Source: an uncultured Chloroflexia bacterium
GTDB taxonomy: Bacteria > Chloroflexota > Dehalococcoidia > GIF9 > UBA5629
Direction: 5' to 3'
NCBI GenBank assembly: GCA_963775935.1
Contig: CAVZKR010000002.1
Location: 16,929-80,928, forward strand
Length of the DNA: 64,000 bases
Position numbers and translations under genes: made by a program. Shown in pieces: positions 11,551 through 43,319 of this stretch (positions within the stretch are counted from its first letter, which is position 1; every line of letters starts with the position of its first letter). The notes under the pieces were generated by a model. The model ran no database searches, was not told the DNA's origin, and was given only the letters and a program-made list of their open reading frames with translations.

Positions 11551-12339
11551 TTAAGTTTGTAGAAACATCTCAATTTTTACATCCCTGTAACCCAGTGACC
11601 GTGAAATTTGAAGTGCACAATTTTTCAGTAGTGGAGCAAACTGTTTTAGTTTCAGTTTATTTAACCGTACTGATGGCCCTACAATAGACACGGCTCCTAT
11701 AGCTTCTCTCCCGGCATTTCTTATTGGTGTTGCAATACTAGTTATGTCGATAAAATATTCCTCAATATCATAGGCAATATTTTCACGTTTGATAGTTTTA
11801 ATCTCTTTAATTAACCGAGCCTTGTCTGTAAGTGTATTATTTGTATAAGCAGTTAATACCCTGCTAGCAATTGTTTTTTTAAACTCCTCGTCTGGAAGAC
11901 AAGCCAAAAGCGTCTTACCAATTGCTGTGCAATGTAATGGAAATGGCTGGGCATTTTCAGTATCTGGAACTGCCTGCAAGAACTGTTTTGGGAAAATAGT
12001 AGCCATACTAAACAAATTAGATCCATCAAATAGTATCAAATCAACAGTCTCGGACGTCTTTCCACAAAGCCTTTCCAAGAATGGCAACGCTTGTTCTTTA
12101 ATGCCTGCAGTACGCTTATTAATACCATTAAATAATAAAAATTTTTGCCCAATTAAATATTTACCCCTTTTATATTTTTGATATAAGTAGCCCCGTTTAA
12201 CCAAAACTGAACAAATCCTATGAACGACGCTTGAATTCAATCCAGTATCACGGACAATATCTGCGACACTGAATCCTTCAGCATGTTTCAGTTTTACTAT
12301 CGATTCAAGAACGCAAAGTTGCTTTTCTATAGCTTGCAT
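11551..12339 (-). CDS. IclR-family transcriptional regulator
   Basis: An N-terminal helix-turn-helix (…FSVADIVRDTGLNSSVVHRICSVLVKRGYL…) followed by a C-terminal effector-binding IclR domain. Divergent from the acetylene-hydratase-like gene. Confidence 0.8.
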   Translation of the reverse strand: MQAIEKQLCVLESIVKLKHAEGFSVADIVRDTGLNSSVVHRICSVLVKRGYLYQKYKRGKYLIGQKFLLFNGINKRTAGIKEQALPFLERLCGKTSETVDLILFDGSNLFSMATIFPKQFLQAVPDTENAQPFPLHCTAIGKTLLACLPDEEFKKTIASRVLTAYTNNTLTDKARLIKEIKTIKRENIAYDIEEYFIDITSIATPIRNAGREAIGAVSIVGPSVRLNKLKLKQFAPLLKNCALQISRSLGYRDVKIEMFLQT

Positions 12340-12459: not shown

Positions 12460-12583
12460 TCGCAATATGATTTTCTACTCCACATTATACATTATAACTA
12501 CTTAAACAGGCAATTGCGCAATAATTCTTTTCAGGATATATAAGAAAACCCGGTTCATTTTTCATCGAGAAGGAGGCTTGAAA

Positions 12584-15091
12584 ATGGTAGATACCAGACC
12601 AAATGAAATTAGGACATACTGTTGCCAGTGTAGTATGGAGCACCCAGTCATCTGCGAGGTACACATGGGTAGTTTTACTAAGGTAAAACCAGATCCAGAC
12701 AGTCCATACAGTGGCCATCTATGTGAAAAAGGTTTATGTGGACAGGAGTTAGTATATCATCCTGACCGTCTTAATTATCCCCTGAAACGAACCAATCCAA
12801 AGGGCTCTCGTGATCCCGGTTGGGTAAGGATTTCTTGGGACGAAGCCTATGATACGATTGTCAAACGCCTGAACCAAATTAAGAAAAAATATGGTGCTGA
12901 ATCAGTTTTGCAATTTGCCGGTGCTCCGGGTGGAGGCGCTTACATCGACGACCTCTTCTGGATGCATCGTTTCGCCAACCTTTTTGGAACACCGAACAGG
13001 GTGGAAACAGGAATAGCCGTATGCGAGCTTGGGAGAGATACCTATGCATCCCTTACCTGGGGCATGTCCTTTAACCCACCGCCAGGGAGCAACTTTTTTG
13101 GCATTCACGCTTACCCGGATTATGAGAATACCGCTTGTCTGATGGTTTTCGGTTTTAATGCGCGGCAAACCCAAAATGAGGACTATTTCCGTATGAAAGC
13201 TGCTGTAAGGAGGGGAGCCAAACTCATAGTCGTTGACCCACGGCTCACGGAGGTTGGTGAGATAGCCGATCTTTATATGCAACTACGTCCCGGAACTGAT
13301 GGGGCTATTGCTATGGGTATGATTAACCTTATGCTTAGCAGGGAGCTCTATGATAAGACTTTCGTAAGAGATTGGACAAACGGACCATTTCTGGTACGGA
13401 CTGATACTAATAGCCTCCTGACTGAAAAGGATTTATCCGCTAAAGGCAATTCGGGAAGATACATAGTATGGGACGAGATATCTAAAAGCCCAAAGGTTTA
13501 TAATCCAAAGACTGTAAAATATGAATCACCAAACGTCATCCCTTCCCTTAAAACTTCCCGTGAAATCAAATTGGCAAATGGTAAAGTTATAGTATGCAAG
13601 ACCGTGTTACAGCTCTTGGCAGACCGCGCTGCAAAATACACTCCCAAGAAGGTTGAAGAAATATCGTGGGTTCCAGCTAAAGATCTTGAGCAGGCAACGC
13701 TCTGGATGTGTACCCTAAAACGTTCCGCTGTCCATTCATTCACTGGAGTAGAACAAAATACCAACCAGTCTCAAACCGCTCGAGCTCTCCACGTGATGTA
13801 TACATTAACCGGAAATTTTGATCAGATGGGCGGCAATATTTCCTATCCATACCCAATTCCGATTGCAACTGATTATGAAGGCTCAGGGGACATATTACCC
13901 CCAGCACAGCATAAAAAGAGAATCGGCCAAGCCGAAAAACCCCTTGGTGTCTGTCTGCGCGGGTATATGACTCATTATGACGCTTACGAGGCGATTCTTA
14001 CCCAAAAACCATACCCTATTAAGGGTGGCATGGGTTTTGGTGCTAATCATTTATGTATCGGTAGTGATGCCCAAAAAGGATTCGAGGCTCTGAAAAGACT
14101 AGAATTTCTTTTCTGGGTAGAAATCTTCATGACACCAACCGCAGCGATGTCCGACATCGTCCTACCAGCGGCATCTACGTGGGAATCAGAGAACGTGGTT
14201 ACCTGGGGTGAAATTATAGGTTATCCAAATATTTTAGGCAATTACATGAGATATAGAAGGCCTGTAATTTCTCCATCTTACGAGCGCAGAGGTGACCTCC
14301 AGATATTGTGTGAGCTGTCGCAGGCATTTGGCTTCAAAGACCCGGTATTTGATAGTGGTGTTGAAGGTTGTTTGAACCATAAAATAGCACCCAGTGGATA
14401 TACTCTTGACCAGGTAAAGGCAAATCCGGCAGGCATATATTGCGAAAAAATTCTGCCGAGATATGCAAAGTATGCAGAACGAGATGAGAAAACGGGCAAT
14501 TACAAGGGAGTTATTACACAGACCAGAAAGCTAGAGCTATATTCTACTATGTTCAAGGATCATGGATATGATCCGTTACCAGATTTCATTGAGCCGAAGG
14601 TGAGCCCGATTAGCCAACCTGCACTGGCTAAGAAATTCCCACTCATTGTCATAGATGCTAGAAGAAGATATATGACACAGAGTCAGTGCGCTGGACTTCC
14701 GGCTATCCGGCAGAAAATGCCATATGCATATGCAGATATACACCCTGAGACAGCCAAAGCATACGGAATAAAAGATGGCGATATGATGTATATCAAAACA
14801 AAGAATGGGAGGATCAAACAACAAGCCCATGTTACCAATACTATTCACCCCAAAGTAATTTGCTGCACCTTTGGGTGGTGGCAGGGATGTCCGCAATTAG
14901 GCATACCTCAGCCAGACTTCTTGGGCAATGAATCCTCAAACTACTCGGTGATAATCAGTGCGGATGTTCATGACCCAATAAGCGGTTCTTATCCTCTCAA
15001 TGGATATCTATGTGCTATTAGTCCTGCTGGAAAACCAGACCCGATTCTAGGGGGGAAAATAGATCGAAAACTAGGGTTGACTACCGATTAA
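12584..15091 (+). CDS. Molybdopterin/tungstopterin oxidoreductase, acetylene-hydratase-like (MopB superfamily)
   Basis: An N-terminal Cys cluster (CCQCSMEHPVICEV…C) for a [4Fe-4S] centre, and blocks resembling Pelobacter acetylene hydratase (…KLIVVDPRLTEVGEIADLYMQLRPGTDGAIAMGMINLM…, …FMTPTAAMSDIVLPAASTWE…), with a C-terminal MGD-binding beta-barrel domain. The ATG at 12584 is preferred over the TTG at 12578. Confidence 0.8.
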   Translation: MVDTRPNEIRTYCCQCSMEHPVICEVHMGSFTKVKPDPDSPYSGHLCEKGLCGQELVYHPDRLNYPLKRTNPKGSRDPGWVRISWDEAYDTIVKRLNQIKKKYGAESVLQFAGAPGGGAYIDDLFWMHRFANLFGTPNRVETGIAVCELGRDTYASLTWGMSFNPPPGSNFFGIHAYPDYENTACLMVFGFNARQTQNEDYFRMKAAVRRGAKLIVVDPRLTEVGEIADLYMQLRPGTDGAIAMGMINLMLSRELYDKTFVRDWTNGPFLVRTDTNSLLTEKDLSAKGNSGRYIVWDEISKSPKVYNPKTVKYESPNVIPSLKTSREIKLANGKVIVCKTVLQLLADRAAKYTPKKVEEISWVPAKDLEQATLWMCTLKRSAVHSFTGVEQNTNQSQTARALHVMYTLTGNFDQMGGNISYPYPIPIATDYEGSGDILPPAQHKKRIGQAEKPLGVCLRGYMTHYDAYEAILTQKPYPIKGGMGFGANHLCIGSDAQKGFEALKRLEFLFWVEIFMTPTAAMSDIVLPAASTWESENVVTWGEIIGYPNILGNYMRYRRPVISPSYERRGDLQILCELSQAFGFKDPVFDSGVEGCLNHKIAPSGYTLDQVKANPAGIYCEKILPRYAKYAERDEKTGNYKGVITQTRKLELYSTMFKDHGYDPLPDFIEPKVSPISQPALAKKFPLIVIDARRRYMTQSQCAGLPAIRQKMPYAYADIHPETAKAYGIKDGDMMYIKTKNGRIKQQAHVTNTIHPKVICCTFGWWQGCPQLGIPQPDFLGNESSNYSVIISADVHDPISGSYPLNGYLCAISPAGKPDPILGGKIDRKLGLTTD

Positions 15092-15370: not shown

Positions 15371-17962
15371 ATGGAAGAAAAAACATTCATAAAAGGGCTA
15401 AGCTGGTGTGGAAATGAGCCGTTTGCAGGAGCAAATGCCTCGGCGGTTGATGTTCAGGATGGACGTATAGTTAGGATCAGGCCATTTCATTTTGACTGGA
15501 AATATAAGCCTGAGGAGATGAATCCTTGGAAAATTACAGTGCGTAGAAAGACCCTTGAGCCGGGCATGAAAACATTATTGTCCCCTCTCTCACTTGGGTA
15601 TAAACAACGTGTTTATTCACCCAACAGGATAAAATATCCGCTGAAAAGAGTTGATTGGAATCCAAATGGGGACAGAAATCCACAAAACAGGGGCAGAAGT
15701 AAATTTAAGCGAATTTCCTGGGATGAAGCTACCGAAATCATAGTTAATGAACTCAAGAGGGTACGGGATACCTATGGTCCCTGTGCGATATATTCCCTTT
15801 CCCCAATACATGGCGAGACCAAGGTTTTACACTTTGCGCATAAAACGACGACCAGACTCTTCCACCACTATTTAGGGGACTATAGCAAGCAGGCAGGGGC
15901 TGGGCCTGATAGCTGGCCAGGATGGTTTTGGGGAGCAAAGCATGTATGGGGTATGACTCCTAATGTCGGTATGATGGTTCCTCTTACTAATTGTGTCAAG
16001 GATATAGCTGAGCATACAGATCTTATTCTATTCTGGGGATGTGACCCAGAAACCACCCCCTTGGCTTGGGGGGGGCAATTGCCGAACCGAATTTGCCATT
16101 GGTGGAAAGAACTCGGCATAAAATCTATCTATATCTGTCCGGATTTGAACTATGGTGCAGCTATACACGCAGATAAATGGATCCCCATACTACCCAACAC
16201 GGATGCTGCACTACACCTTGCCATATCCTACGTTTGGATAAATGAGGGAACCTATGACAAAGATTACGTAGCAACACATACATCTGGCTTCGAAGAATAT
16301 AGGAAATATGTCATGGGTGAAACAGACGGTATTCCCAAGACACCGGCATGGGCTTCTCCTTTATGTGGTATTTCAGAGTGGACAATAAAGGCATTAGCCA
16401 GGGGATGGGCATCCAAAACCACATCTATAGCACACGGTGATGGTGGTTCTATGATAAGAGGCCCTTATTCTCATGAGCCTGCCAGGCTTGAAGTTCTAAA
16501 TCTAGCTTTGCAGGGAGTGGGAAAGCCAGGACGTCACCAGATGAAAATGATCGAGTGGAATCATATAGGTCAGACTACAGCGACCAACCCGCTGCCGAGG
16601 CCTAATCTTCTTCCCAATGTCATAAAGGCACGCCGTGGAGGTATAACCGATCCAGTATCCCAGGTACTGCCTCATGATCTTTTTGCTGACGGTATTCTGT
16701 CTGACAAACCAGTTAGCTGGTATTTCTATACGCCTGCAATGCCATGGGTGGACCCAGCTGAGAAACAATTTGAAAAATTTCAATACCCGGCTAAGGGATG
16801 TCCAGAAATACACATGATCTGGTCTGATACACCTTGCTGGTTAGGAAGCTGGGGTGAGGGAAATAAAAACGTCGAAGCTATCAGGAATTCCAAGATTGAA
16901 TGCGTCGTAACCCAACATCCCTGGATGGAAAATGGTTGTTTGTATTCTGATATCATCCTGCCAATTAACACCAAATTGGAGGAGGAAGATATCGGTACAG
17001 ATATCCAGAGTGGCCAATATTGCCTCATTTTTCTTGAAGGTAAATGTATTGAACCGATAGGCGAATCAAAAAGTGACTTTGAGGCTATTGGCGAAGTAGC
17101 CAAGAAACTGGGAGTGTACGATAAATTCACGGAAGGTAAAACAGATGAGGAATGGATACGGGATGGTTTCGAACACTCTGGTGTGAAGAATATGATAAGC
17201 TGGGAAGAATTTAAGCATAAAGGGTACTATGTGATACCAACTGCTGCTGATTGGGAGCAGGACCCGGTTGGTATTGCCAAATTTGTTGAAAATCCTGAGA
17301 AGAATCCATTGGAGACACCAACCGGCAAAATAGAATTCTACGCTACAGCTATTGCAAAACACTTTCCTGACGATGATGAACGACCACCGGTTCCTCACTG
17401 GATTCCCTATGGCGAGTCACATCAGGAGAGTCTACTTCATCCTAAATCACAGAGGTATCCTTTGCTCCTCGTATCAAATCACGGGAAGTGGAGAGTGCAT
17501 ACCGAACATGATGATATATCCTGGTTACGAGAAATTAACATGTGTAAAGTTAGGGGGACAGATGGTTATATGTATGAGCCTGTCTGGATTAACCCACAGG
17601 ATGCAGCTGGGAGGGGTATTGTTGATGGTGATATAGTAAAGGTTTATAACGATTGGGGAGCTGTCCTTGGTGGTGCGAGGGTGATTGAAAGAATAATACC
17701 TGGTGCAATATCTCAGGATCATGGTGCCAGGCATGACCCCATAGCTTCGGGGCTTGATAGAGGAGGCTCCAATAACATGATTTCACCGCGAGGATTAACA
17801 TCGAGGAATTGTGTGGCTGCGGCAACAAGCGGGTTCCTCGTTGAGGTTGAAAAAGTTACCACGTCGCAGATGAATGAGTGGGAAAAACAATATCCCGAGG
17901 CATTTGAAAGAGAATATGATCCAGCTTCCGGTTTACTTTTCGATGCCTGGATTGAAGATTAA
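15371..17962 (+). CDS. Pyrogallol-hydroxytransferase (PHT)-like molybdoenzyme large subunit, paralogue 1
   Basis: 863 aa with no N-terminal Fe-S cysteine motif. It carries the PHT-family blocks …YSPNRIKYPLKRVDWNPNGDRNPQNRG…ISWDEA…, …DSWPGWFWGAKHVWG…, …FWGCDPETT…, …IYICPDLNYGAAIHADKWIPILPNTDAAL…. Confidence 0.8.
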   Translation: MEEKTFIKGLSWCGNEPFAGANASAVDVQDGRIVRIRPFHFDWKYKPEEMNPWKITVRRKTLEPGMKTLLSPLSLGYKQRVYSPNRIKYPLKRVDWNPNGDRNPQNRGRSKFKRISWDEATEIIVNELKRVRDTYGPCAIYSLSPIHGETKVLHFAHKTTTRLFHHYLGDYSKQAGAGPDSWPGWFWGAKHVWGMTPNVGMMVPLTNCVKDIAEHTDLILFWGCDPETTPLAWGGQLPNRICHWWKELGIKSIYICPDLNYGAAIHADKWIPILPNTDAALHLAISYVWINEGTYDKDYVATHTSGFEEYRKYVMGETDGIPKTPAWASPLCGISEWTIKALARGWASKTTSIAHGDGGSMIRGPYSHEPARLEVLNLALQGVGKPGRHQMKMIEWNHIGQTTATNPLPRPNLLPNVIKARRGGITDPVSQVLPHDLFADGILSDKPVSWYFYTPAMPWVDPAEKQFEKFQYPAKGCPEIHMIWSDTPCWLGSWGEGNKNVEAIRNSKIECVVTQHPWMENGCLYSDIILPINTKLEEEDIGTDIQSGQYCLIFLEGKCIEPIGESKSDFEAIGEVAKKLGVYDKFTEGKTDEEWIRDGFEHSGVKNMISWEEFKHKGYYVIPTAADWEQDPVGIAKFVENPEKNPLETPTGKIEFYATAIAKHFPDDDERPPVPHWIPYGESHQESLLHPKSQRYPLLLVSNHGKWRVHTEHDDISWLREINMCKVRGTDGYMYEPVWINPQDAAGRGIVDGDIVKVYNDWGAVLGGARVIERIIPGAISQDHGARHDPIASGLDRGGSNNMISPRGLTSRNCVAAATSGFLVEVEKVTTSQMNEWEKQYPEAFEREYDPASGLLFDAWIED

Positions 17963-18057
17963 GGCTAGAAAATTCAGATGAGCAATTAAAGAAAAGGGGT
18001 ACTTAAAGATTAAATTGTTTTAGAAACATTTTATGTACATAGCAAAAAGGAGTGAAG

Positions 18058-20715
18058 ATGCCGGCGAGTAGAACATCAAAAAATGGACTTGAAACACTGA
18101 TTAAAAGTACTGGTTTCTGCGCCTGTGGCGAAACATCAATGGTGGCATGCATCGATGTAAAAGATGGGAAAATAGTCAGAACTAGGCCATTTCGTTTTGA
18201 CTGGAAGTATAAACCAGAGGAGTTCAATCCCTGGAAAATCGAAGCACGTCAAAAAGTGTTTGAACCACCCATGAAGTCCATGATAGTTCCTTTTGCCTTT
18301 GGCTATAAAAAGCGTGTCTATTCCCCCAACAGGATTCTCTATCCATTAAAGAGAGTAGATTGGAACCCAGATGGAGAAAGAAATATTGAGACTAGAGGGA
18401 AAAGTGGGTACGTCAGGATATCGTGGGATGAAGCTCTTGACATCATAACAAAAGAAATTAAGAGAGTGATTAAACAGTATGGGCCTTACTCTATACTTGC
18501 ACAAGGGGATGGACATGGCGAGGGTAAGATGGTACATGCTGCACATGGATGTATGACCGGACTGCTTGAACTTCTAGGAGGTTACACACTACAACTCCGG
18601 AACCCAGATAGCTGGGAAGGATGGTACTGGGGAGCAAAGCATGTTTGGGGTATGGACCCTGTCGGTGTCCAATGGCCTTATCAAACCAATCTTATTCCGG
18701 ACATAGCTCAAAACACCGATGTTTTACTCTTCTGGGGGGGTGACCCGGAAACCACAACTTGGGGTTTTGGCGCTGGACATGGGGTGAGCCGACTGTGCTA
18801 TTGGTTCACTGAACTTGGTATAAAGCAGATATACATATGTCCAGACTTAAACTACGGAGCGGCAGTTCATGCAGATAAATGGATTCCTATACGACCCAAC
18901 ACGGACCCTGCGTTACAATTAGCCATAGCATATCAGTGGCTTACCCTAGGAACTTACGATAAACCTTATGTGGCTACTCATACATTCGGGTTTGACAAGT
19001 TTGAAGAATACGTTTTAGGAAAAGAAGATGGAATACCGAAGACACCTAAATGGGCAGAAGAGATAACTGGGGTTCCGTCCAGGATAATCAAGGCGCTAGC
19101 TCGGGAATGGGCTACTAAACGGACAACTGTAACACATAGTCTCGGGGGACCGTATATCAGGGGACAATATTGTCACGAACCTGCCAGACTTGAGGTTCTA
19201 CTCCTGGCTATGCAGGGGTTGGGGAAGCCGGGCGTAAACCAGTTTTTATTTAATTTTGGAGCGGCGTTTAACAATGCGTTTTATATACGTTGGAAACAAA
19301 AAAAACGGTGTCTGCCACCTAAGCCTAATGGAATTGTGATGCCAACAGCCATTGGTGCGTTTCGTGGCTATAATCTTCATTTTACTCCTATGCCCAAACA
19401 AGTCATTCCTAAAACCATGATACATGAAGCTATCTTGAAAGGCTCGTTTACTATCTATGGCAGTTCATTGCAGACATTGCCTGTCGAAGACCAGTTTAAA
19501 AAATACGAATATCCAGCTGAAGGTTGCTCTCCTATACACATGATTTGGACTGATACTCCCTGTTTAATGACCTGCTGGAATGACAGCAATAGTATTGTAA
19601 AAGCCTATCGACATCCGTCGATTGAGTTTATTTTAGCTCAGCATCCATGGATGGAGAACGATTGCCTCTTCGCCGATATTATCTTACCCGTTAGTACTAA
19701 ATATGAGGAGGATGATATTGGACAGGACTTACAGAGCTTACAATATGATGTCTTATATCTTGAAGATAAGTGTATTGAGCCTTTGGGGGAATCTAGGAGC
19801 GACTATGAAATAGTATGCGCAGTAGCTGAAAAATTAGGTTTATTAAAAGAATATACAAAAGACAAATCTGTTCATGATTGGATAAAAAATGGCTTCGACC
19901 ATTCAGGTCTTCCAGAAGCAGGCTTATGCACCTGGGAGAAATTTAAAGAAAAAAGGTATTTTGTCTCCCCAACCGATCCAAATTGGCAGACATATCCAGC
20001 AGGCTTGTACGAGTTCTATAATGACCCTGAGAAACATCCTCTGGAAACACCTTCAGGGAAGATAGAATTTTATTCCCAGAATTTGGCTAAGTACTTCCCT
20101 GATGACAAAGAGAGACCACCTGTACCTCACTGGATACCTTATGGAGAGTCACATAAAGAAAGCCTGTTGCTTCCCAGGGCCAAGCAATATCCTCTCATCT
20201 GTATGTCTAATCATGGTAGGTGGCGAATACATGCAGAACTGGACGATGTGAACTGGTTCCATGAAATCGAAACCTGTAAGGTCAGGGGGCCCGATGGCTA
20301 CTTGTATGAACCTGTGTGGATTAACCCCAAGACAGCCGAAGAGAGGGGTATCAAGAATGGTGATGTAGTCAGTGTCTTCAATGAGAGGGGTTCTGTCCTC
20401 TATGGCGCGTACGTAACAGAGAGGTTAATGCCCGGGGTTGTCTACGTAGACCATGGCGCCAGGTATGACCCGATAGTACTAGGCGAACTTGATAGAGGTG
20501 GTGCCATCAATACCATTACACCATATAATATCACTTCTAAAAACTGTGCTGGCATGGTCGTTAGTGGATTCCTGGTAGAGGTAGCACCGGTGAACTTGGA
20601 TGAATTAATAAAACAGTACCCGGAAGCGTTTAGCCGCCCCTATGATTATGCCTCAGGGCTGAAATTTGAAAGAGTATTAGTTGATGGAGGTGGACAGAAA
20701 TTACGAAAGCATTAG
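18058..20715 (+). CDS. PHT-like molybdoenzyme large subunit, paralogue 2
   Basis: Carries the same blocks as paralogue 1 (…DSWEGWYWGAKHVWG…, …FWGGDPETT…). The ATG at 18058 follows an AAAGGAG ribosome-binding site; the ORF track starts at a GTG at 18052. Its C-terminus (…GGGQKLRKH*) reads through the position where cluster II has its stop codon. Confidence 0.8.
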   Translation: MPASRTSKNGLETLIKSTGFCACGETSMVACIDVKDGKIVRTRPFRFDWKYKPEEFNPWKIEARQKVFEPPMKSMIVPFAFGYKKRVYSPNRILYPLKRVDWNPDGERNIETRGKSGYVRISWDEALDIITKEIKRVIKQYGPYSILAQGDGHGEGKMVHAAHGCMTGLLELLGGYTLQLRNPDSWEGWYWGAKHVWGMDPVGVQWPYQTNLIPDIAQNTDVLLFWGGDPETTTWGFGAGHGVSRLCYWFTELGIKQIYICPDLNYGAAVHADKWIPIRPNTDPALQLAIAYQWLTLGTYDKPYVATHTFGFDKFEEYVLGKEDGIPKTPKWAEEITGVPSRIIKALAREWATKRTTVTHSLGGPYIRGQYCHEPARLEVLLLAMQGLGKPGVNQFLFNFGAAFNNAFYIRWKQKKRCLPPKPNGIVMPTAIGAFRGYNLHFTPMPKQVIPKTMIHEAILKGSFTIYGSSLQTLPVEDQFKKYEYPAEGCSPIHMIWTDTPCLMTCWNDSNSIVKAYRHPSIEFILAQHPWMENDCLFADIILPVSTKYEEDDIGQDLQSLQYDVLYLEDKCIEPLGESRSDYEIVCAVAEKLGLLKEYTKDKSVHDWIKNGFDHSGLPEAGLCTWEKFKEKRYFVSPTDPNWQTYPAGLYEFYNDPEKHPLETPSGKIEFYSQNLAKYFPDDKERPPVPHWIPYGESHKESLLLPRAKQYPLICMSNHGRWRIHAELDDVNWFHEIETCKVRGPDGYLYEPVWINPKTAEERGIKNGDVVSVFNERGSVLYGAYVTERLMPGVVYVDHGARYDPIVLGELDRGGAINTITPYNITSKNCAGMVVSGFLVEVAPVNLDELIKQYPEAFSRPYDYASGLKFERVLVDGGGQKLRKH

Positions 20716-20770
20716 TCGTCGATACTACCAGATGCAATAGTTGTCACAATTGCCAGATCGACTGTAAGTA
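20700..20770 (+). pseudogene. Remnant of a PHT beta (Fe-S) subunit gene: first ~25 codons only, start codon lost
   Basis: The frame overlapping the alpha2 stop encodes …TKALVVDTTRCNSCHNCQIDCK…, which matches the N-terminus MKALVIDITRCNGCHNCQIACK of the intact beta at 49950..50768. ACG replaces ATG. The nucleotide alignment to the cluster II alpha-stop/beta-start junction is clear and ends where the 3' end of hyuB begins. Confidence 0.5.
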
Positions 20771-20794
20771 CGCAGGCAATAGGTGTCCTCCATT

Positions 20795-22558
20795 TTATCG
20801 ATGCTTGGCCCTGAGGCTTTGTGTCGCATTATAATCGATTTCAAGCCTATCAGGGTCCAAAACAACTTTATAAATATCCCGTGCCTGCTCTATTGAGACA
20901 AACTCCTTGATCACATCTTCCCTGACCTTTTCGGGGTCTCGCTCAATTGGATTACCGACTCCAGCCCCACCACTACAGATCTTAGTCAAAATATCTCCGG
21001 GAAATAGAGGGTATATCCTACCAGCTCTGTAAGGAATTTGCTCTTTCCCACGGGTGACATAGCATCGATTGAATGGTGTGGGATGCCCGCCCAGTTCCCC
21101 AGCGCCCTGTGTAGTCTCTCCCTGAGAATTCCCCATGGATATCATTGCTTCGCCACTCTCGTTTGCGATTTCCCAATACACCCCAGGCGAACCACGCCAC
21201 TTTCCAGCCCCACATAAATCCGGAGCAAATTCATACCGCCGGTAAAACCAGGGGAATCTTATTTCCTCTTCCTCTATGTCCGATTTGGCGGCGCTGCCTA
21301 ACGTAGTGATGCTCTCGCCGTTCTGGTAGCCATCGTATCCGTACACTGCGCCAGGACCGCCATCCATATTAAACGTAACATAGATATAAAATTTGTTTGA
21401 CCTGGAATCATTCCCAAAAATAAAATTAGAATAATGTCTGCCCCAGGCAGCTATCGCCTTCTTTGGTACGGCTTTTGATAGTGCCATTATTATCGCTTCA
21501 CAAATTTGAGTACCCACACTGACAGGGCACGCTCCTAATGTAGCGGGATATCTGGGATTTGTCACCGAACCCTCCGGAGCAATCACGGTAAAAGGCTGCA
21601 TGCTACCCCAGTTGTGATACTCGCTGAGCGTGGGGTCGCCGTAGAGGAAGCAAAAAGCCATGGAAAGACTATAAGTATTCGCAAAAGAGCTGTTGACAAA
21701 ACCCTTGGTCTGCGCATCGCTCTTTGACCAGTCCAGAGTTATACTATCGCCTTTTTTTATCAGATTCAGCCTGACCCAGACAGGGACATCCAGCACAGAG
21801 CCATCGTGATCTTGAGCCGCTTCCCCATAATACGTGCCGTCAGGTATCTCCCTTATCGCCGCCCGCATGCCCGTTTCGGTGCGCTTAAACATCTCTTCGA
21901 TGCAGGCAAACACAACATCCTTGCCATACTTGTCGAGCAGCTCGACAATCCTATTTTCGGATATTTTAGAAGAAGACATAAGGGCATAGTTATCAACACG
22001 CACCCCATCAGGATTGCGCGTGTTGCTCCAGATAAGCCGCATAAGTTCGGTATTTTCTTGACCTCTTTCTATCACCTTAATCGGCGGTATCTGGAGTCCC
22101 TCGGCAATGATGTCATAAGCGCCAGGGAAGTAGCCACCAGGATAGGCGCCTCCAGTATCAATCTGATGAGACCGGGACAGGGTCATGAACAGCAGTTCGC
22201 CCTTGTAGAAAATCGGTCGCATAAAGCCCCAGTCAGGCAGATGCAGAGCCCCGCCATGGTAAGGGTCATTGGTCAGAAAGAGGTCGCCGGGGTAGATTCG
22301 CCCCTTGTACATGTCCAGAATGAGCTTTATCCCGAAGCCACCGGCGATGAACTGACCCGGTAAACCCTCCGGGATGGCTATGGCCCGGCCTTGGGTATCC
22401 CATATCCCTACGGAAACATCGTGAAGTTTTGCCGTCAGGAAATTTGGCGAGGTTCGAAACATGAACTCGCGCATCTCCTTGCAAGTTCTATTAAAATAAT
22501 TCCATACTGTAGCCAGTGTAATCGGGTCCACCTGTGTTACCTTTGCAGCCTTTGCCAT
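20795..22558 (-). CDS. Hydantoinase B / oxoprolinase family protein (HyuB; acetone-carboxylase-alpha-like)
   Basis: 587 aa. Blocks …DVSVGIWDTQGRAIAIPEG… and …YPGDLFLTNDPYHGGALHLPDW… are typical of the HyuB / 5-oxoprolinase B family. Translationally coupled to the upstream hyuA. Confidence 0.85.
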   Translation of the reverse strand: MAKAAKVTQVDPITLATVWNYFNRTCKEMREFMFRTSPNFLTAKLHDVSVGIWDTQGRAIAIPEGLPGQFIAGGFGIKLILDMYKGRIYPGDLFLTNDPYHGGALHLPDWGFMRPIFYKGELLFMTLSRSHQIDTGGAYPGGYFPGAYDIIAEGLQIPPIKVIERGQENTELMRLIWSNTRNPDGVRVDNYALMSSSKISENRIVELLDKYGKDVVFACIEEMFKRTETGMRAAIREIPDGTYYGEAAQDHDGSVLDVPVWVRLNLIKKGDSITLDWSKSDAQTKGFVNSSFANTYSLSMAFCFLYGDPTLSEYHNWGSMQPFTVIAPEGSVTNPRYPATLGACPVSVGTQICEAIIMALSKAVPKKAIAAWGRHYSNFIFGNDSRSNKFYIYVTFNMDGGPGAVYGYDGYQNGESITTLGSAAKSDIEEEEIRFPWFYRRYEFAPDLCGAGKWRGSPGVYWEIANESGEAMISMGNSQGETTQGAGELGGHPTPFNRCYVTRGKEQIPYRAGRIYPLFPGDILTKICSGGAGVGNPIERDPEKVREDVIKEFVSIEQARDIYKVVLDPDRLEIDYNATQSLRAKHR

Positions 22559-22560
22559 TT

Positions 22561-24627
22561 CTACGTCCTCCTGATAATATAGTTACCACAGTTGTCCACA
22601 CGGCAACCCCATGACTTTGGAATAACTGCGGTGGTGGTCGGCACCTCAATTATGGCCGGCCCCGCGATGAAGTTACCTGCTTTTAGCTTCTCACTATCGT
22701 ATACCGGTGTCTTAATAAACTTACCATTGAAGAAGCATGACCTCTGACGCTTTAGCGCCTTTGATGGGTCTTTCGTTCCGGTGGGCAGTTTTTTAACCGT
22801 TATCTGTGCCTTCTTCTTGACCTTGGCTATTATGCGGAGGCTGCGAAGCTCTACATCATAGAACCGCAGAGAGAAGGTGTATAGCTCTTCATGCCTCTTA
22901 TGGAAAGCCTCCACCACTTTCTTGAAATCCGCAGAGGTCAGTTTCTTGTCAGGAATACTCCCCACTTCAACGTCATGGAACTGAGACCTATACCGGAACT
23001 CCATGGACTTAATGATTTCTACGTCCGCCCGGCCTGCCCCAAATGCTTTGAACTCCGATATAGCCTGTTTTATCATGTCTTGATATAACTGGTTGACGGC
23101 ATCAATATTAACCGCCTCAACCGGGGCAATATACGAACGAAGATAGTCCCGACCGACGTCGAGGGTGAACATACTCCAGGCACAGAACGAGGAGGCAAAT
23201 GGGGGAATAATTACTTCAGGGATACCGAGCGCTTCTGCCAGAAAAGCGGCATGGGTGGGACCCGCACCACCAAAGGCGAACAGAGTGAAATCCCTGACAT
23301 CATGACCATTCTTAGTGGTAACCACAGAGATGGCATCTGCCATATTGGAATTCACCACAGAGAACATGGCGTGCGCCGCCTGCTCTAAGGACATGTGTAA
23401 CCTGTCAGCCACTTTGCCCACTGCGGCTTTAGCCAAATCCATATCAAGTGGAACTCTTCCCCCTAGGAAGTAATCGGCCGGGATGTAACCTAAAATAAGA
23501 TCGGCATCGGTGACTGCGGCTCCCTTTCCTCCCTTGTCGTAACAGGCTGGGCCAGGGTCGGCGGCAACGCTCTTGGGGCCAACTCGCAGTAAACCCATAG
23601 AATCAAACCAGGCGAGGCTTCCACCCCCGGCACCCAGGGTAGTGATGTCCACCATCTTAATCGCCACCATCTCCTCGTCGACCCATCGGCTGTGGCTAAG
23701 GTTAATTACCCCGTCCTTTACGAAGCCAATATCGAGGCTCGTGCCACCCATATCTATAGTGACGAAGCTTTGCCTATCTATAAGCTTACCTAAGTAAACT
23801 GAGCCTGATGGTCCGGAAGCCGGCCCTGAGTTTATTAGATACACAGGCTTTTTAATCGCTTCGGACACTGACTGTACTAAAGCATCAGCTTGCATTATTA
23901 ATAACTGACCTTTGAAGTTTAACTGTTTTAACCTTTCTCCAAGGGTAGTAAAATAGCTGCTTACAATCGGACCTATATAGGCATTAAGGATAGTGGTACT
24001 TGCCCGGGCAAACTCACCCACAACAGGCATAACATCGCAAGAAGTGCAGATGTATGCCCCTTTAAGTTCCTGTCTGCATATCTCGGCAGCCTTTCTTTCA
24101 TTCTCAGGGTTAGCATATGAATGAAGGAAGCATATTGCTACCGCTCCCACCCTTTCCTCTTTTAATTTTTTGATTACATCTCTTAGTTCTCTTTCATTTA
24201 AAGTCGTACTTATCTCGCCGGTATAACGGGTTCTTTCCGCAACCGTAAATCTTAGCGGCCGGGGCACCAGTGGCTCATAGGGCGGAATGAACATATTGTA
24301 CATGGATGTTTTAATATTTTTAAGTCCCATCCGCATCTCAACAATGTCTCTGAACCCCTTGGTGGTGATTAGGGCCGTCTTAGTTCCCGATCTGGTGAGA
24401 AAGGCATTGAGTGCTACCGTCGTGCCATGTATTACCGTCCGGGTTTCACCAAGAAATTGCGGAATCGTTAGCTTATAATGAGCCGCTGCTCTCTCAAAGT
24501 TGTTTATTAACCCTGCTGACAAATCTGAAGGAGTAGTGGCAACCTTGGATTCAAATAAATTACCTTCCTCATCTAGGACGACACTATCGGTAAAAGTACC
24601 TCCTATGTCAATGCATACTTTAAACAT
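22561..24627 (-). CDS. Hydantoinase A / oxoprolinase family protein (HyuA)
   Basis: 688 aa. The N-terminus MFKVCIDIGGTFTDSVVLDE… is the actin-like ATPase start of the HyuA family. Confidence 0.85.
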   Translation of the reverse strand: MFKVCIDIGGTFTDSVVLDEEGNLFESKVATTPSDLSAGLINNFERAAAHYKLTIPQFLGETRTVIHGTTVALNAFLTRSGTKTALITTKGFRDIVEMRMGLKNIKTSMYNMFIPPYEPLVPRPLRFTVAERTRYTGEISTTLNERELRDVIKKLKEERVGAVAICFLHSYANPENERKAAEICRQELKGAYICTSCDVMPVVGEFARASTTILNAYIGPIVSSYFTTLGERLKQLNFKGQLLIMQADALVQSVSEAIKKPVYLINSGPASGPSGSVYLGKLIDRQSFVTIDMGGTSLDIGFVKDGVINLSHSRWVDEEMVAIKMVDITTLGAGGGSLAWFDSMGLLRVGPKSVAADPGPACYDKGGKGAAVTDADLILGYIPADYFLGGRVPLDMDLAKAAVGKVADRLHMSLEQAAHAMFSVVNSNMADAISVVTTKNGHDVRDFTLFAFGGAGPTHAAFLAEALGIPEVIIPPFASSFCAWSMFTLDVGRDYLRSYIAPVEAVNIDAVNQLYQDMIKQAISEFKAFGAGRADVEIIKSMEFRYRSQFHDVEVGSIPDKKLTSADFKKVVEAFHKRHEELYTFSLRFYDVELRSLRIIAKVKKKAQITVKKLPTGTKDPSKALKRQRSCFFNGKFIKTPVYDSEKLKAGNFIAGPAIIEVPTTTAVIPKSWGCRVDNCGNYIIRRT

Positions 24628-24685: not shown

Positions 24686-25366
24686 TTAAGCGGGCAGATA
24701 CCAGACTGACGGCTCTGTTCCGAGTTCTTCCAGTAGCCTATATCCTTTTCTTTCTCTAATTAACCTAGAAACCTCACTACCAGGCTCGTCTAAATCGCCG
24801 AAGGTTCTTGCCACCGTAGGGCAATTGATCACACATATGGGAGTTGCCTCTGGGTCTAACCCAGGTTTCAAGCCCATTGACATGCCACTGTTGATTCTAT
24901 CCATGCAGAATGTGCATTTGGTAGTTGTGCCAACTTTGAATCTCTGGTACTCTGCCCGTAATTCATACGGAAACTTATCGCGAAGCGTCGGCTCAGCATA
25001 ATAGCTTTTTTCCTCTTTATACTGAGTTCTTGCTTTATATGGACAAGCTACCACGCAGTATCCGCAACCTATACATTTGCTATAATCAACGTATACTATA
25101 CCGTCCTCCCTCTGAATAGATGCTCCTGTGGGACATACTTCTACACAAGACGGTTTCTCACAGTGCATGCAAGGTACAACTAGAAATCTTCTCGTGACTG
25201 AAGGATACTCCCCAATTTCATAGTCATATAGTTTGTTCCAAAAAATACCGGGGGGCGTGAAGTTTTCTAGCTTACAAGTCATGACGCATGCCATACAACC
25301 GATGCATCTTTTTAAATCGATAGCCATGCCCCATCTCGTTTTTGTTTTTAAAGTCTTCTCAGCCAT
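24686..25366 (-). CDS. 4Fe-4S ferredoxin-type subunit of a molybdopterin oxidoreductase (DmsB/PsrB-like)
   Basis: 226 aa with four Cys clusters (CIGCMACVMTC, CMHCEKPSCVEVCP, CIGCGYCVVACP, CTFCMDR…CP). Confidence 0.8.
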   Translation of the reverse strand: MAEKTLKTKTRWGMAIDLKRCIGCMACVMTCKLENFTPPGIFWNKLYDYEIGEYPSVTRRFLVVPCMHCEKPSCVEVCPTGASIQREDGIVYVDYSKCIGCGYCVVACPYKARTQYKEEKSYYAEPTLRDKFPYELRAEYQRFKVGTTTKCTFCMDRINSGMSMGLKPGLDPEATPICVINCPTVARTFGDLDEPGSEVSRLIRERKGYRLLEELGTEPSVWYLPA

Positions 25367-25444: not shown

Positions 25445-28210
25445 CTAGGCTCTATAAACCTTCACTTTTATCTTGTCGTTAACCGAGCCCCCTATGGAAA
25501 GAGTTTCTAATAGGCTTGGCTCTATCTCGTTCGGGTTAGGGATACCTAAATCCTTAGCTACTGGCATTTTCCAGTGGCCATACATTTGAGTTGTTAAGAC
25601 GACGTCCGGTCTAATACCCTGGCGTAAAATAACCTTGCCCTTTATTTTCCTGTAAGGCGACTCAATCCAGATTTCATCTCCTTCTTTGATTCCGAGCCGC
25701 TCGGCTGCTTTCTTGTTCATTTGGACCGCATTGTGGCCCATTATTTGCTTTGTCAACTCATGTACCTGAGGAAGACTCATGGTTAAGCCCCAGGGCTGCT
25801 GCCCGCTCCTGGTAGAAAGTACCCAGAATGGATAATCCTCCGCCTTTTTACCGTAAACTTCGAGGTATTACTTTGTCCCAGACGTCACCGACAATTTCAC
25901 AAGGAGGCAGGAAATCCGTCTCACCAATTTGCTCATCCCACCAGAAGATATTCCGTTCGTGTAACCTTCTCCTCAATTCCTCGTGGATTTTTTTGAGCCT
26001 CTCCTGATAAGGTAGCTCAAATCTCATCCCCTTCTTCTTAAATAGCGGGTACAGAAACCAGGGACGTATTTGCATTCCTGGCGCCTTTCCCGCTGGGTAG
26101 ATGTCGTCCTGAGGCATGGGGCCAGAAATAGCCACCCGTTTGCTTGAAGTCTTCCAATGAGAGGCTAACTTTGCCTCCGCTAAACTTCTCCGACATAGCT
26201 CTGGCAACACGATCATAAATTTCCTCGGCGCTATATTTTTTATTGAGTTCCAACTCGCACGGTGTACCACCAAGTTCAAAGCCCAGCCAATTACCCTCAT
26301 TGATGAAGGCATTATACTCGGCCAGCATTTTGGTTCTGTCGGCTATCTCCGTCATGATGTCGGTCATATTCATAGTGTTATACAGTCTCTTAACAATGGG
26401 CTGTTTAATCGCGATCCCTGCTTGCTCCCAGTAGACATCGTGGTCCTTTACGCCGCCTGTAGGATACAGCTGGAGTGACTCAAAATCGCAGTCCTCTGGC
26501 AGGAGAAGGTCGGCATACCAGGCAGTTTCATCCATGGTATGAACAAAGCTGACCATGAAAGGAATCATCTTAAGCACTTCCTCAACTACGGGGGTATCAT
26601 GTTGAGATATCGGCAGATTGGACTTGTAGGTGATAAATACATCCGGCGGCGATGCTTTAGGCCAGTTAGGAAACCCTTTAATAATGTTCACGTAGGACAT
26701 ATGCAACGGCCCGTAGAAAGTAGCCGTCATTGGGCATAGCCCGGTACCGCAGTCACGCCTGCCCGTTATTTGCTGGTATTCCTCCTTGGACGTGGGATTG
26801 AAGGGGTATTGGGCAAATCCCTCGAGCGTTTTTGGCTCGGCTGGACCCGAGAAATGAATCCTGGCGCCAACAAGCCCCCCGGGCACTTCAAAAGCACCAA
26901 GTAACGTCAGGAAGGTTGAAGCTCCCCAAACTGCCGGCACTGAACCCCTGCCTGCGTTGACACCCTTGCCCAACTGTATGCACACCGGCCGCAGTGGCAT
27001 TTCCCAACCGAACATGTTGATTCTGCGGTTGCTGGCAGCGTCAGCTGTTTTTACCATGTCATCAGCTATTCTGCGGATAGTCTCGGCCGGGACATCGCAG
27101 ATTTCACTGGCCCATTCTGGCGTATTATTCTTGACATGGTCAGCTAAATGCTGAAATACAGGCTTAACCTTAACATCGGTAAACTCCACTGTCTCTTCAT
27201 CAGGACCTATGCTGATGCCGCTAACCGTGTATTCTCCGTCAAGGGCAAAGTCCTTTATATCCTCGTCATCCCACAGCTTTGCTTTATTGTCTACCGGGTC
27301 CCAGATCAGGGGCTTTTTGGTCAGCCGGGTCTCGGATATAATAGCCGTTGGGGGCAACCAGATAAGGGTTATTTGTCATTTGTTTAAGATAAGCCACGTC
27401 ACAGGCTTGCCTCCAGTTCAGCTCATGTAAAACGTGATGGAGCATGGCGTAGAGAAATGCCGCGTCTGTCCCCGGCTTAATCGGTACCCACTCATTGGCT
27501 ACTGCGCCCGTTGTGGTCAGCACCGGCTCGATTTGGATTCTTCTCATCCCTCTAACCCTGGCATCAGCTGTCCTGATAAAGGCGTGAGTTCCAGATGCGA
27601 CCATTTCACTTTTACCAAAGGAAAGTACCAGATTGCAACGCGGCTGATCGGTACCGGTGGTAAATGCTTTGTTCCACAGCTCACCGAAGATATGCTCGGT
27701 ATGATAGCATTTGGTTCCCCCGCCATGCCCCAGTGTATAATCAGCCGGGAATATGCCCAAGGGGAAACCTATGCAGGTTGAATTACCCCCGAATAACACA
27801 GCGTAGGTTCCATTAAAGCTGGGGCAGGTGCCATCAGACCCCTCGCAAGCAGCTATTCTGTAATACCCGTTTTCGTCAAACCAGCCCTTCTCTTTCACCT
27901 CCAGCAGCTTCTTGGCAAAAAGGTCTAAGGCTTCGTCCCAACCGATTTCTACAAATCCAGGGTCTTCTTCTCTGCCCTTCTTAGGGTTAGTTCTCTTCAT
28001 CGGGGCTTTAACCCGATTAGGGTTAAAGTGCCGATGTATCATCTGCATAGCCATAGCACACGGTCTCCAGCCACGTTCTTTAAACGGAGTAAGATAGGAC
28101 AAATCATAGTTTGGCTCCAGATTTACTGGAATTCCGTTCTTGACACGGACCTTTATCACATCAGGTGCGCCGCTGTTGCACATATAGCAATAGGTAGGGA
28201 ACAGCTCCAT
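25445..28210 (-). pseudogene. Molybdopterin oxidoreductase catalytic (alpha) subunit, Psr/Phs/Dms-like, split into four ORFs by at least three frameshifts
   Basis: Four consecutive same-strand ORFs (27284..28210, 26038..27357, 25848..26312, 25445..25780) together encode the N-terminal Cys region, the MGD-binding domains and the C-terminal molybdopterin-dinucleotide-binding domain of one ~950-aa protein. At least one junction (near 27350) coincides with a C5 run. Confidence 0.7.
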
Positions 28211-28464
28211 CCTTCTCTGTTTCTACTCTGGGCTTCGGTTGAGGCGCTATTTCCGAGCCCGTCCGTACTTTAGAGGCCGTCTCTTTTATGGTTACTTCTT
28301 TCTTATCTGTCATTGGCACTATCCCCTTTACCTGTTACTAGTAGCAGAAACTATCATAATATTATTCTGATAAGGTTGGCGCTAAATGATTACGACTACT
28401 AATTTTATCTATTAATCAAGATGTAATTTCAATACGAGTAAAATTAAAGACAAACTTTAAGCTA

Positions 28465-38336: not shown

Positions 38337-38342
38337 AAATTT

Positions 38343-41618: not shown

Positions 41619-41920
41619 TTCCCGCGACTCCTTTAAATTTGACGCCACCTTGCACTTACTCATATACAGTCTTAAAATGCTAACACTTTATTGTGCGGTT
41701 AACTTTGCCAAAGTATCAGATCCTACAGCTTCATTGGGGTCAAGACATTTATAGAACCCTATATCATGTTTATAAACAAAGCATAGCATTTTCTTTGAAC
41801 CTTTCATAGGGTAGCTACCGACACAATGGTCCTTGACAAAATTTTAGTAATATGCGAGCATTGGCTAAGAATAATGTTAGCAACTAAACAAGTTGAATAA
41901 TTATAAGGGGAGGTGCTCTC

Positions 41921-43261: not shown

Positions 43262-43319
43262 CAAGATAGCTATTTTGAATTGAGTGGAGCACTGAGAACC
43301 GCTGAGTTAGCGGTTCTCA

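Follow-up and report, generated by a model that had tools for sequence, protein, structure and literature searches.

Neighbouring PHT-like molybdoenzyme and hyuAB genes in an uncultured Chloroflexota bacterium: recurrent module or paralogue duplication?

We analysed a stretch of 64,000 nucleotides (nt) from an uncultured Chloroflexia bacterium (GenBank assembly GCA_963775935.1, contig CAVZKR010000002.1, positions 16,929 to 80,928), hereafter the window, in which genes for molybdenum (Mo) enzymes resembling pyrogallol-phloroglucinol transhydroxylase (PHT) lie beside genes for HyuA/HyuB (HyuAB) enzymes. Both families appear to have expanded here, the first as cytoplasmic PHT-family Mo enzymes with three large subunits (alpha1-3) and one beta subunit and the second as two-subunit HyuAB enzymes, and both probably serve a common, broad repertoire of aromatic and heterocyclic breakdown. 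An earlier note on this DNA had taken the adjacency, seen in three clusters, for a recurrent module of an undescribed anaerobic pathway. We favour another reading, to which we assign a probability of roughly 0.55: the window represents a catabolic region of an anaerobe, rich in paralogues and actively rearranging, in which PHT-like and hyuAB genes are neighbours mainly through duplication and recombination, and no obligate module joins them. Of the proposed module there remain a convergent pair, a pair on the same strand but 394 nt apart, and a duplicate, and the adjacency does not look conserved in the PHT-like family.

Gene order, duplication and decay in the window

Genes were called from a listing of open reading frames (ORFs) and Pfam scans of the window, and gene remnants were sought by tblastn and blastx. 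All genes named in the earlier note were found in the ORF listing and Pfam scans at or near the places it gave, including a lone hyuB on the - strand at 39795-41663, against 39795-41618 in the note. Additional to these are a further Mo-bis(pyranopterin guanine dinucleotide) (bis-PGD) subunit (alpha0), an iron-sulphur (FeS) gene, a PadB-like subunit, an NrfD-type anchor and debris of alpha and hyuA genes. The features on which the argument turns are as follows.

12578..15091, + strand: alpha0, acetylene-hydratase-like bis-PGD subunit (Molybdopterin, Molydop_binding, weak Molybdop_Fe4S4)
15371..17962, + strand: alpha1, PHT-family large subunit paralogue (AhtL-like_1st, Molybdopterin, Molydop_binding)
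18052..20715, + strand: alpha2, PHT-family large subunit paralogue (same three domains), with an alternative ATG start at 18058
20706..20801, + strand: remnant of a BthL-type beta subunit, residues 2-35 (tblastn/blastx)
20795..22558, - strand: hyuB1, HyuB-type metal-site subunit (Hydantoinase_B, E 6e-123), intact and convergent with alpha2
22561..24627, - strand: hyuA1, HyuA-type ATP-binding subunit (Hydant_A_N, Hydantoinase_A, Hydant_A_C), intact
24686..25366, - strand: 4Fe-4S subunit of the four-cluster type with 16 Cys (Fer4_11 and other Pfam domains), 58 nt upstream of hyuA1
~25448..28219, - strand: PadB-like bis-PGD Mo subunit with three frameshifts (homologues at 50-54% identity)
28465..29355, - strand: NrfD-type membrane anchor (Pfam NrfD)
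39795..41663, - strand: lone hyuB (Hydantoinase_B, E 5e-115), divergent from a Liv-type ABC operon
49340..49872, - strand: debris in which part of a PHT-like alpha (49409-49872) is linked to a piece of hyuA (49340-49426)
49950..50768, - strand: BthL-type beta subunit (Fer4_11 and CarboxypepD_reg), 5 nt after alpha3
50774..53398, - strand: alpha3, PHT-family large subunit (AhtL-like_1st, Molybdopterin, Molydop_binding)
53399..53792, - strand: 394-nt spacer between hyuB-II and alpha3 by ORF coordinates, free of gene remnants
53793..55544, - strand: hyuB-II (Hydantoinase_B, E 5e-112), intact, 583 amino acids (aa)
55541..57606, - strand: hyuA-II, broken by five 1-nt insertions (ORF pieces 57052-57606 and 55541-56560)
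57823..58065, - strand: N-terminal remnant of an enoyl-CoA hydratase (ECH) gene upstream of hyuA-II (tblastn with ECH1 of locus L124), with a duplicate copy at 62938-63132
58899..60664, - strand: hyuB-III, frameshifted near 59510-59540 (pieces 59378-60664 and 58899-59510), with a divergent 3' part
60661..62721, - strand: hyuA-III, intact, 686 aa
53809..63135: tandem duplication, 53809-58020 corresponding to 58927-63135 (blastn)

In cluster I, alpha1 and alpha2 on the + strand converge on hyuB1-hyuA1 on the - strand, and co-transcription of the alphas with hyuBA is therefore impossible. All five elements that had been assigned to this cluster (alpha1, alpha2, the beta remnant, hyuB and hyuA) are real, but the alphas and hyuBA occupy opposite strands. 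The 3' end of hyuB1 runs over the beta remnant at 20706-20801(+), from which we conclude that a rearrangement cut the beta gene at this point; the remnant is 59% identical to the window's beta subunit and 44-47% identical to betas of four other loci (L042, L043, L045 and L123). The same-strand companions of hyuA1 lie upstream of it on the - strand: the FeS gene, the frameshifted PadB-like Mo subunit, the NrfD gene and a Liv-type binding protein. The reading frame of the PadB-like gene runs -1, -2, -3, -1 through frameshifts at about 27320, 26125 and 25858, which makes it a probable pseudogene; its orthologue in L110 is uninterrupted at the third of these sites. Blastx found no gene remnants in 24620-24700, 25360-25460 or 28205-28470, and promoter and terminator scans were uninformative at the convergent alpha2/hyuB1 junction.

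A single tandem duplication of hyuA-hyuB, of recent date, accounts for both cluster II and cluster III, so that the three clusters exist as genes but are not three independent cases. The segments 53809-58020 and 58927-63135 are 94.8% identical over 4226 nt (blastn), with the copies about 5.1 kb apart, and identity approaches 100% across 55607-58020 (about 2.4 kb). The duplication is marked by repeat families D1-D9, while D8/I3 repeats mark the debris at 49340-49872, in which the alpha part corresponds to residues 2-156 and the hyuA part to residues 559-587 (tblastn, blastx). The duplicated unit consists of the ECH remnant, hyuA and hyuB; since an intact ECH gene precedes hyuA in L109, the ancestral unit was probably ECH-hyuA-hyuB. 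Each duplicate carries frameshifts, in hyuA in copy II (five 1-nt insertions within 56505-57063 when hyuA-III is taken as the reference) and in hyuB in copy III.

Cluster II is the sole site in the window with PHT-like alpha and beta genes on the same strand as hyuAB. It had been presented as an operon with 4-5-nt overlaps or gaps throughout; the common strand stands, as does the close spacing within each pair (hyuA and hyuB overlap by 4 nt, alpha3 and beta are 5 nt apart), but 394 nt (53399-53792) separate hyuB from alpha3. PHT-like and hyuAB genes with operon-like spacing on one strand are thus not found anywhere in the window, cluster I being convergent, cluster II interrupted by this gap and cluster III without an alpha. 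No gene remnants were found by blastx in the 53399-53792 spacer or in 58020-58930; for the 394-nt spacer, scans gave a weak promoter-like site (53580-53553) and no - strand terminator, and were uninformative.

Remnants litter the region (the beta fragment, the alpha/hyuA debris, the ECH remnant in two copies, and frameshifted PadB-like, LivM-like, hyuA-II and hyuB-III genes), which argues for rearrangement. The LivM-like case, the second permease of the operon beside the lone hyuB (44270-45275), is frameshifted at about 44790-44870 (blastx). At least ten frameshifts fall mainly in four genes while most genes are intact, which points to real decay or local repeat assembly trouble over a general sequencing problem. 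The local history would then comprise a 5.1-kb tandem duplication of the unit of ECH remnant, hyuA and hyuB, a recombination that shortened the beta gene behind alpha2 and brought hyuBA into a convergent position, and other recombinations that left the alpha/hyuA debris. The genes would be expressed from separate transcription units, predicted as an IclR-family regulator gene divergent from alpha0-alpha1-alpha2, NrfD-PadB-like (pseudogene)-FeS-hyuA1-hyuB1, substrate-binding protein-hyuA-hyuB (twice), and alpha3-beta.

Neighbourhoods elsewhere and competing explanations

We compared the window with two sets of loci: 78 alpha-centred loci (one genome per species, alphas of 54-74% identity, up to 10 kb on each side) and about 40 distinct hyuB-centred loci on metagenome contigs (about 0.1 Mb of flank in total). 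A hyuA or hyuB gene lies within 10 kb in three of the 78 alpha-centred loci (L042, Syntrophorhabdales; L043, Desulfobacteraceae; L045, Chloroflexi RBG_16_60_22), and the usual neighbours of PHT-like alphas in this set are beta subunits and further alphas. Three matches per 0.96 Mb of flank fit an assumed background of 1-3 hyuB genes per Mb; the observed frequency is at or near this background, and the expectation that HyuAB and PHT genes co-occur above chance finds no clear support in this set. Conversely, a PHT-like alpha is present in one of the approximately 40 hyuB-centred loci (L091), and a bis-PGD subunit of any kind in five (L091 together with L084, L097, L105 and L110); hyuAB or hyuB genes stand without a Mo subunit in L080, L081, L082, L085, L088, L089, L103/L104 and L122. 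No domain fusions of the two families were found among the matches listed (120 homologues each of alpha3 and HyuB-II). The source contig carries at least six hyuB genes in 801 kb, and in L123 four PHT-like alphas lie within 22 kb.

Closer linkage is found in a small number of contigs. The tightest hyuB-alpha pair among the loci examined is that of L091 (69% GC, 293-2499), in which the hyuB stop codon TGA (2066-2068) is followed after 6 nt by the ATG (2075) of a PHT-like alpha on the same strand, itself 79% identical to the L124 alpha3 orthologue. A 722-aa ORF in L091 that would have represented a HyuB-alpha fusion was rejected, as the TGA stop separates the two genes and the apparent frame through both is spurious, a product of the 69% GC content. 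In L124 (738-8814) and L125, both of 60% GC, a five-gene operon with 4-nt overlaps encodes a Pyr_redox_2 flavoprotein, a Mo subunit of the FS0 type (763 aa), an FeS protein (178 aa), HyuA and HyuB; the HyuB and HyuA of L124 are 83% and 69% identical to hyuB1 and hyuA1 of cluster I, and the operon converges on the end of a PHT-like alpha as cluster I does, with no beta remnant at the L124 alpha/hyuB junction. HyuB identity of 83% despite GC contents of 45% and 60% suggests that the hyuAB cassette moved by horizontal transfer. Other cases are L043 (hyuB, alpha, beta), L097 (hyuB, 83 nt, Mo subunit) and L110, where the uninterrupted PadB-like orthologue ends about 100 nt before hyuA. PadB-like homologues in L127, L128 and L129 are arranged in the order alpha, FeS, NrfD, and no further Mo-hyuAB operons were found through these homologues in L127-L130.

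Several observations weigh against duplication and recombination as the main source of the adjacency. Bis-PGD subunits in five of about 40 hyuB-centred loci exceed expectation unless the genomes are very rich in bis-PGD genes; both PHT units of the window touch a hyu unit, a double adjacency with p of about 0.01-0.02 under random gene order; and for the closest relatives of alpha3 (at least 70% identity), hyuAB lies within 10 kb in three of six contexts (present in the window, L124 and L091; absent from L123, L057 and L027). Tight same-strand hyuAB and bis-PGD genes also occur in unrelated-looking contigs of 45-69% GC (L091, L097, L110, L124/L125 and L043), and HyuAB of the cluster I type follows a Mo/FeS module in three of five distinct contexts (window, L110 and L124), the Mo subunits belonging to two unrelated subfamilies. 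These points would be accommodated if HyuAB acted in one pathway with interchangeable bis-PGD enzymes, cytoplasmic or membrane-bound (PHT-like, acetylene-hydratase-like or PadB-like), an explanation that we consider somewhat unlikely. The Mo enzyme would add a water-derived oxygen to an aromatic or heterocyclic compound to give a lactam or cyclic oxo tautomer, which HyuAB would activate with ATP and then ring-open or carboxylate. The HyuAB of the L124/L125 operon is orthologous to that of cluster I, and in the window and L110 orthologous HyuAB follow a different, PadB-like Mo subunit; such a non-orthologous swap of the Mo partner would imply that a redox partner is needed. The spacing in L091, L097 and L043 and the hyuB-centred count agree with this, as do the ethylbenzene and indoleacetate precedents discussed below. 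Yet no link exists in 75 of the 78 alpha-centred loci, nor in the hyuB-bearing loci listed above without a Mo subunit; the Mo partner in cluster I has three frameshifts while hyuA1B1 is intact; the Mo partners share only 27-41% identity among themselves, so that they define no module; the PadB-like homologues in L127, L128 and L129 stand without hyuAB; and bis-PGD paralogues crowd into islands such as L123, raising the chance of adjacency. A bolder form, in which HyuAB of these clades are dedicated partners of bis-PGD enzymes (of the same three kinds) swapped between lineages, so that a horizontally spread cassette encodes an undescribed anaerobic route in which a phenolic or N-heterocyclic ring is hydroxylated by a water-dependent Mo enzyme and then opened or carboxylated at the expense of ATP, we judge unlikely. 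Tight operons elsewhere (L091, L124) lend the coupled pathway of the earlier note some plausibility, but a link between HyuAB and bis-PGD enzymes would be neither general nor specific to PHT-like enzymes.

A technical origin is also conceivable, namely that much of clusters II and III, together with the apparent pseudogenes, is an assembly or polishing artefact of near-identical paralogues, that the real genome has fewer copies or another arrangement of them, and that the adjacency is uninformative. Such an origin would explain why five single-base insertions, most of which lengthen runs of the same base, fall within 560 nt of 99-100% identical DNA, and why four genes account for most of the frameshifts, of which there are at least ten. 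Moreover, a collection of 15 billion proteins contains alpha3, TilS and HyuA1 from this 801-kb contig but no exact match to HyuB-II, which may have been annotated differently at the source, for example as a pseudogene or with another start. We nevertheless regard an artefact as very unlikely, given that each copy has flanks of its own (about 900 nt at 58020-58927 are unique, and alpha3 follows one copy only), and that the 3' parts of the hyuB genes differ by 18-30%, unlike those of a collapsed or duplicated repeat. Alpha1-3, hyuA1B1, hyuA-III, hyuB-II and most other genes are intact, indicating no general indel problem; the third frameshift of the PadB-like gene is not in a homopolymer; and an alpha converging on hyuB-hyuA recurs in an independent metagenome (L124/L125).

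The claim that PHT enzymes have not been described with HyuAB agrees with our literature search, which found no link and only genome surveys, including ones of Chloroflexi, that list the two families separately. The logic of Mo-dependent hydroxylation followed by a HyuAB-type step, in contrast, is not undescribed: in ethylbenzene degradation, ethylbenzene dehydrogenase is followed by acetophenone carboxylase (Apc), placing a bis-PGD Mo enzyme and a HyuAB-family enzyme in one pathway, and hydantoinase-like gamma-lactamases have been predicted for indoleacetate metabolism (PMC5214803). The pair from Aromatoleum aromaticum resembles the proposed coupling in that a Mo hydroxylase and an ATP-dependent HyuAB-family enzyme share an anaerobic pathway, but ethylbenzene dehydrogenase belongs to the periplasmic type II enzymes and has both FS0 and a haem subunit, whereas the Mo enzymes of the window are PHT-like, acetylene-hydratase-like or PadB-like, and Apc is a carboxylase built of more numerous and longer subunits, whereas the window HyuAB are of the hydantoinase (Hyd) type. 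In the anaerobic indoleacetate (iaa) route, a Mo-cofactor hydroxylase reportedly precedes a hydantoinase-like lactamase (Ebenau-Jehle et al. 2012), hydroxylation next to the ring nitrogen being said to give a lactam that a HyuAB-type enzyme opens. Genes for a B12 mutase and an IaaF-type dehydrogenase, which belong to that pathway, are not in the window. A paper on ATP-dependent steroid C26 hydroxylation makes no mention of the hydantoinase, oxoprolinase or acetone carboxylase families.

If the tight hyuAB-Mo operons (L091, L124) reflect a real pathway, they would place an ATP-dependent step in anaerobic polyphenol or heterocycle breakdown and would suggest, for two very large clades of uncharacterised enzymes, a function open to experiment. 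The coupling would then be a new variation on a strategy already known; apart from it, the window contains new members of known families in an ordinary though unusually scrambled order. If the pathway is not real, the window illustrates how paralogue duplication and recombination can mimic a recurrent module. The analysis directs attention to the same-strand Mo/FeS-hyuAB operon type (cluster I, L110 and L124) and to the L091 hyuB-alpha pair as an experimental entry point.

Properties of the two enzyme families

Alpha3 aligns over its full length to AthL, the large subunit of the Pelobacter acidigallici enzyme AthL/BthL (PDB 4v4c_A, E 6e-147), and alpha1, alpha2 and alpha3 are 34%, 37% and 38% identical to AthL; alpha1 is 52-54% identical to alpha2 and alpha3, and alpha2 is 68% identical to alpha3. 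As in AthL, the large subunits are full length, with a bis-PGD fold in which an AhtL-like first domain (PF21423, followed by PF00384 and PF01568) takes the place of FS0: the N-termini of alpha1-3 carry no Cys clusters and the FS0 [4Fe-4S] motif is absent. No Tat signal was found in alpha1-3, nor in alpha0. Alpha1-3 keep the PDSW motif, whose Ser is the ligand of Mo, as well as the equivalent of His144, and both are invariant in 13 homologues. Unlike in AthL, the Arg153 equivalent is replaced by Ala, Ala or Thr in alpha1-3 and the Tyr404 position is a deletion; both residues are retained in alphaB of L124, which represents a separate clade, 60% identical to AthL, present in related contigs. In AthL, Ser175 is reportedly the Mo ligand, and Arg153 and Tyr404 reportedly bind pyrogallol (Messerschmidt et al. 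2004); the role assigned to His144 comes from the same structure. From the loss of the Arg153 and Tyr404 equivalents, alpha1-3 are by sequence members of the PHT family and not AthL orthologues.

The intact beta subunit (49950-50768) matches BthL (PDB 4v4c_B, E 1.8e-57 over residues 4-256) and has 16 Cys and a C-terminal barrel domain, reproducing the FeS part plus barrel of the known small subunit. It adjoins alpha3, whereas alpha1 and alpha2, in a further difference from AthL/BthL, have no intact neighbouring beta and only the 34-residue remnant. From these features we infer that the alpha/beta enzymes would use a Ser-ligated Mo-bis-PGD site to hydroxylate, or shift hydroxyls on, phenols other than pyrogallol. 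The clade of alpha1-3 is very large, accounting for 6776 of 8000 candidate database proteins at E <= 0.001, none of which is specifically named. PHT-like genes in sediment and aquifer Chloroflexi genomes are routinely taken as evidence of "pyrogallol degradation" (PMC3971608, PMC4959651). With 34-38% identity to AthL and two substrate-site residues absent, this label is probably too specific for so abundant a clade, and alpha1-3 should not be annotated as pyrogallol transhydroxylase.

A locus with two different PHT-family enzymes is provided by L124, in which the orthologue of window alpha3 lies between two enoyl-CoA hydratase genes. At L124:9075-20049, an AthL orthologue (60% identical) is accompanied by SDR, Cupin_2, 3HCDH, Lactamase_B and BKACE genes, and no hyuAB occurs in that operon. 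The SDR/cupin/3HCDH/BKACE set resembles that of the phloroglucinol pathway, and the stretch looks like a phloroglucinol-type pathway cluster.

Alpha0 is a cytoplasmic Mo/W subunit, acetylene-hydratase-like and not PHT-like: among PDB structures it is closest to acetylene hydratase (2e7z, E 1.1e-68), it carries an N-terminal Cys cluster, and it is 26-30% identical to alpha1-3. Subunits of this kind, of 700-780 aa, accompany hyuAB or PHT-like genes in L042, L043, L045, L084, L097 and L105. The homologues of the PadB-like subunit of cluster I (50-54% identity) form a small family, several members of which are named phenylacetyl-CoA:acceptor oxidoreductase by JGI. As in the PadBCD type, these JGI-named homologues form trios of alpha, FeS and NrfD, and FeS and NrfD genes flank the window's PadB-like gene, but the order in the window is NrfD, alpha, FeS, the alpha is broken, and the JGI name comes from automated annotation. 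For the FeS protein at 24686-25366, the nearest NCBIfam models are DsrO, ArrB, TtrB and NrfC, all under cutoff, and it is 29% identical to the BthL-type beta.

By sequence, the HyuAB proteins of the window are of the two-subunit hydantoinase/oxoprolinase/caprolactamase branch. Their lengths are 688/587 aa (hyuA1/hyuB1) and 686/583 aa (hyuA-III/hyuB-II), subunit length being a criterion that separates the Hyd type from carboxylases (PMC5214803), and this branch typically pairs an ASKHA ATPase of about 690 aa with a partner of about 580 aa. For HyuA1, N-methylhydantoinase (E 1e-118) and 6yra_A (E 3e-118), which bears the name 5-oxoprolinase/hydantoinase in the PDB, rank above acetone carboxylase (E 1e-83). 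A gene for a gamma or other small subunit was not found between or after hyuA and hyuB in the window by ORF listing or Pfam. A ketone carboxylase of the acetone (Acx) or acetophenone (Apc) type was considered and rejected on these grounds: no extra subunits, HyuB of 583-587 aa, and Apc/Acx matches weaker than those to hydantoinase and lactamase. The HyuA ATP phosphate motifs described in PMC8453981 are present (DIGGT/DTGGT and DMGGT), with GAEPGP in hyuA-III and the exact G..PGP pattern absent from hyuA1, and the Asp-His-Asp-His metal tetrad of HyuB given in the same source (D43, H102, D105, H127) is invariant across the three HyuB paralogues.

The caprolactamase CapAB, N-methylhydantoinase HyuAB and 5-oxoprolinase share with the window the two-gene layout, in which hyuA overlaps or abuts hyuB, and the subunit sizes, and they include the closest PDB entries and NCBIfam models. 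The nearest NCBIfam models, CapA and CapB, nonetheless score far under their equivalog cutoffs (610-613 against 1000 bits for CapA, 272-290 against 1000 for CapB), one window hyuB lacks a hyuA, and the window hyuAB lie beside genes of anaerobic aromatic or acyl-CoA type and Liv-type transporters. In the mechanism proposed for caprolactamase, a HyuA-type subunit phosphorylates with ATP and a HyuB-type subunit hydrolyses at its metal site (PMC8453981). By analogy, the substrate in the window would be a cyclic amide or ketone: HyuA would use ATP to phosphorylate its lactim or enol tautomer, which HyuB would hydrolyse in turn at the Asp-His-Asp-His site. No hyuA was found by tblastn near the lone hyuB (39795-41663), which is close to a gene of the histone-deacetylase family (Hist_deacetyl) in the window (37230-41663), as is a lone hyuB in L122 (10001-14213); the two cases suggest a conserved orphan HyuB arrangement.

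Neighbouring genes and further observations

The remaining annotated features of the window are listed below.

11551..12339, - strand: IclR-family regulator (Pfam IclR_C and HTH_IclR), divergent from the alpha0-alpha1-alpha2 array
29574..30812, - strand: Liv-type periplasmic substrate-binding protein (Peripla_BP_6), of a family recurrent beside hyuAB elsewhere
35448..36899: TilS, housekeeping
41921..46827, + strand: Liv-type ABC transporter with substrate-binding protein, permease, frameshifted second permease and two ATPases (Pfam; blastx)
63585..64000, - strand: C-terminal part of a Liv-type substrate-binding protein upstream of hyuA-III, the gene exceeding the window end; clusters with the substrate-binding protein family

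Liv-type ABC transporters, found at nine loci including three places in the window, and TRAP transporters are the commonest neighbours of the hyuAB clades seen here, and the adjacent Liv-type systems may import the HyuAB substrate. Further neighbours identified by ORF clustering are Amidohydro_2 proteins, CoA-transferases, enoyl-CoA hydratases, an OYE-like reductase, and IclR and MarR regulators, with IclR homologues near hyuAB in L084 and L114. The suggestion that the surrounding genes form a single catabolic island is supported in part: IclR, MarR, CoA-transferase III, 3HCDH and transporter genes do recur, loosely, around hyuAB, but TilS and other housekeeping genes interrupt the region. On contigs of Desulfosporosinus type and others, among them L085 (3990-13779) and L089, hyuAB genes from the HyuB-II clade lie with two adjacent ORFs that, read by eye, resemble 3-oxoacid CoA-transferase A/B subunits; in L085 this pair comes directly after hyuAB, and beyond it are two ECH genes and two genes for family III CoA-transferases. 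Such surroundings hint at a carboxylic acid as the HyuAB product, one that would enter beta-oxidation-like steps.

The GC content of the window is 45%, and the nearest relatives of several of its proteins are from metagenome-assembled genomes of Dehalococcoidales/Chloroflexota, Actinomycetes and Clostridia. Rfam and tRNA scans of the window gave no match, and hence no Moco riboswitch, while a promoter scan placed a promoter-like site at 12431-12459(+), between the IclR gene and alpha0. Near CoA-transferase and MFS genes, three ORFs (4160-5215, 5481-6248 and 6486-6974) have no confident Pfam match, and a HEAT-repeat protein of 247 aa is encoded at 1771-2514.

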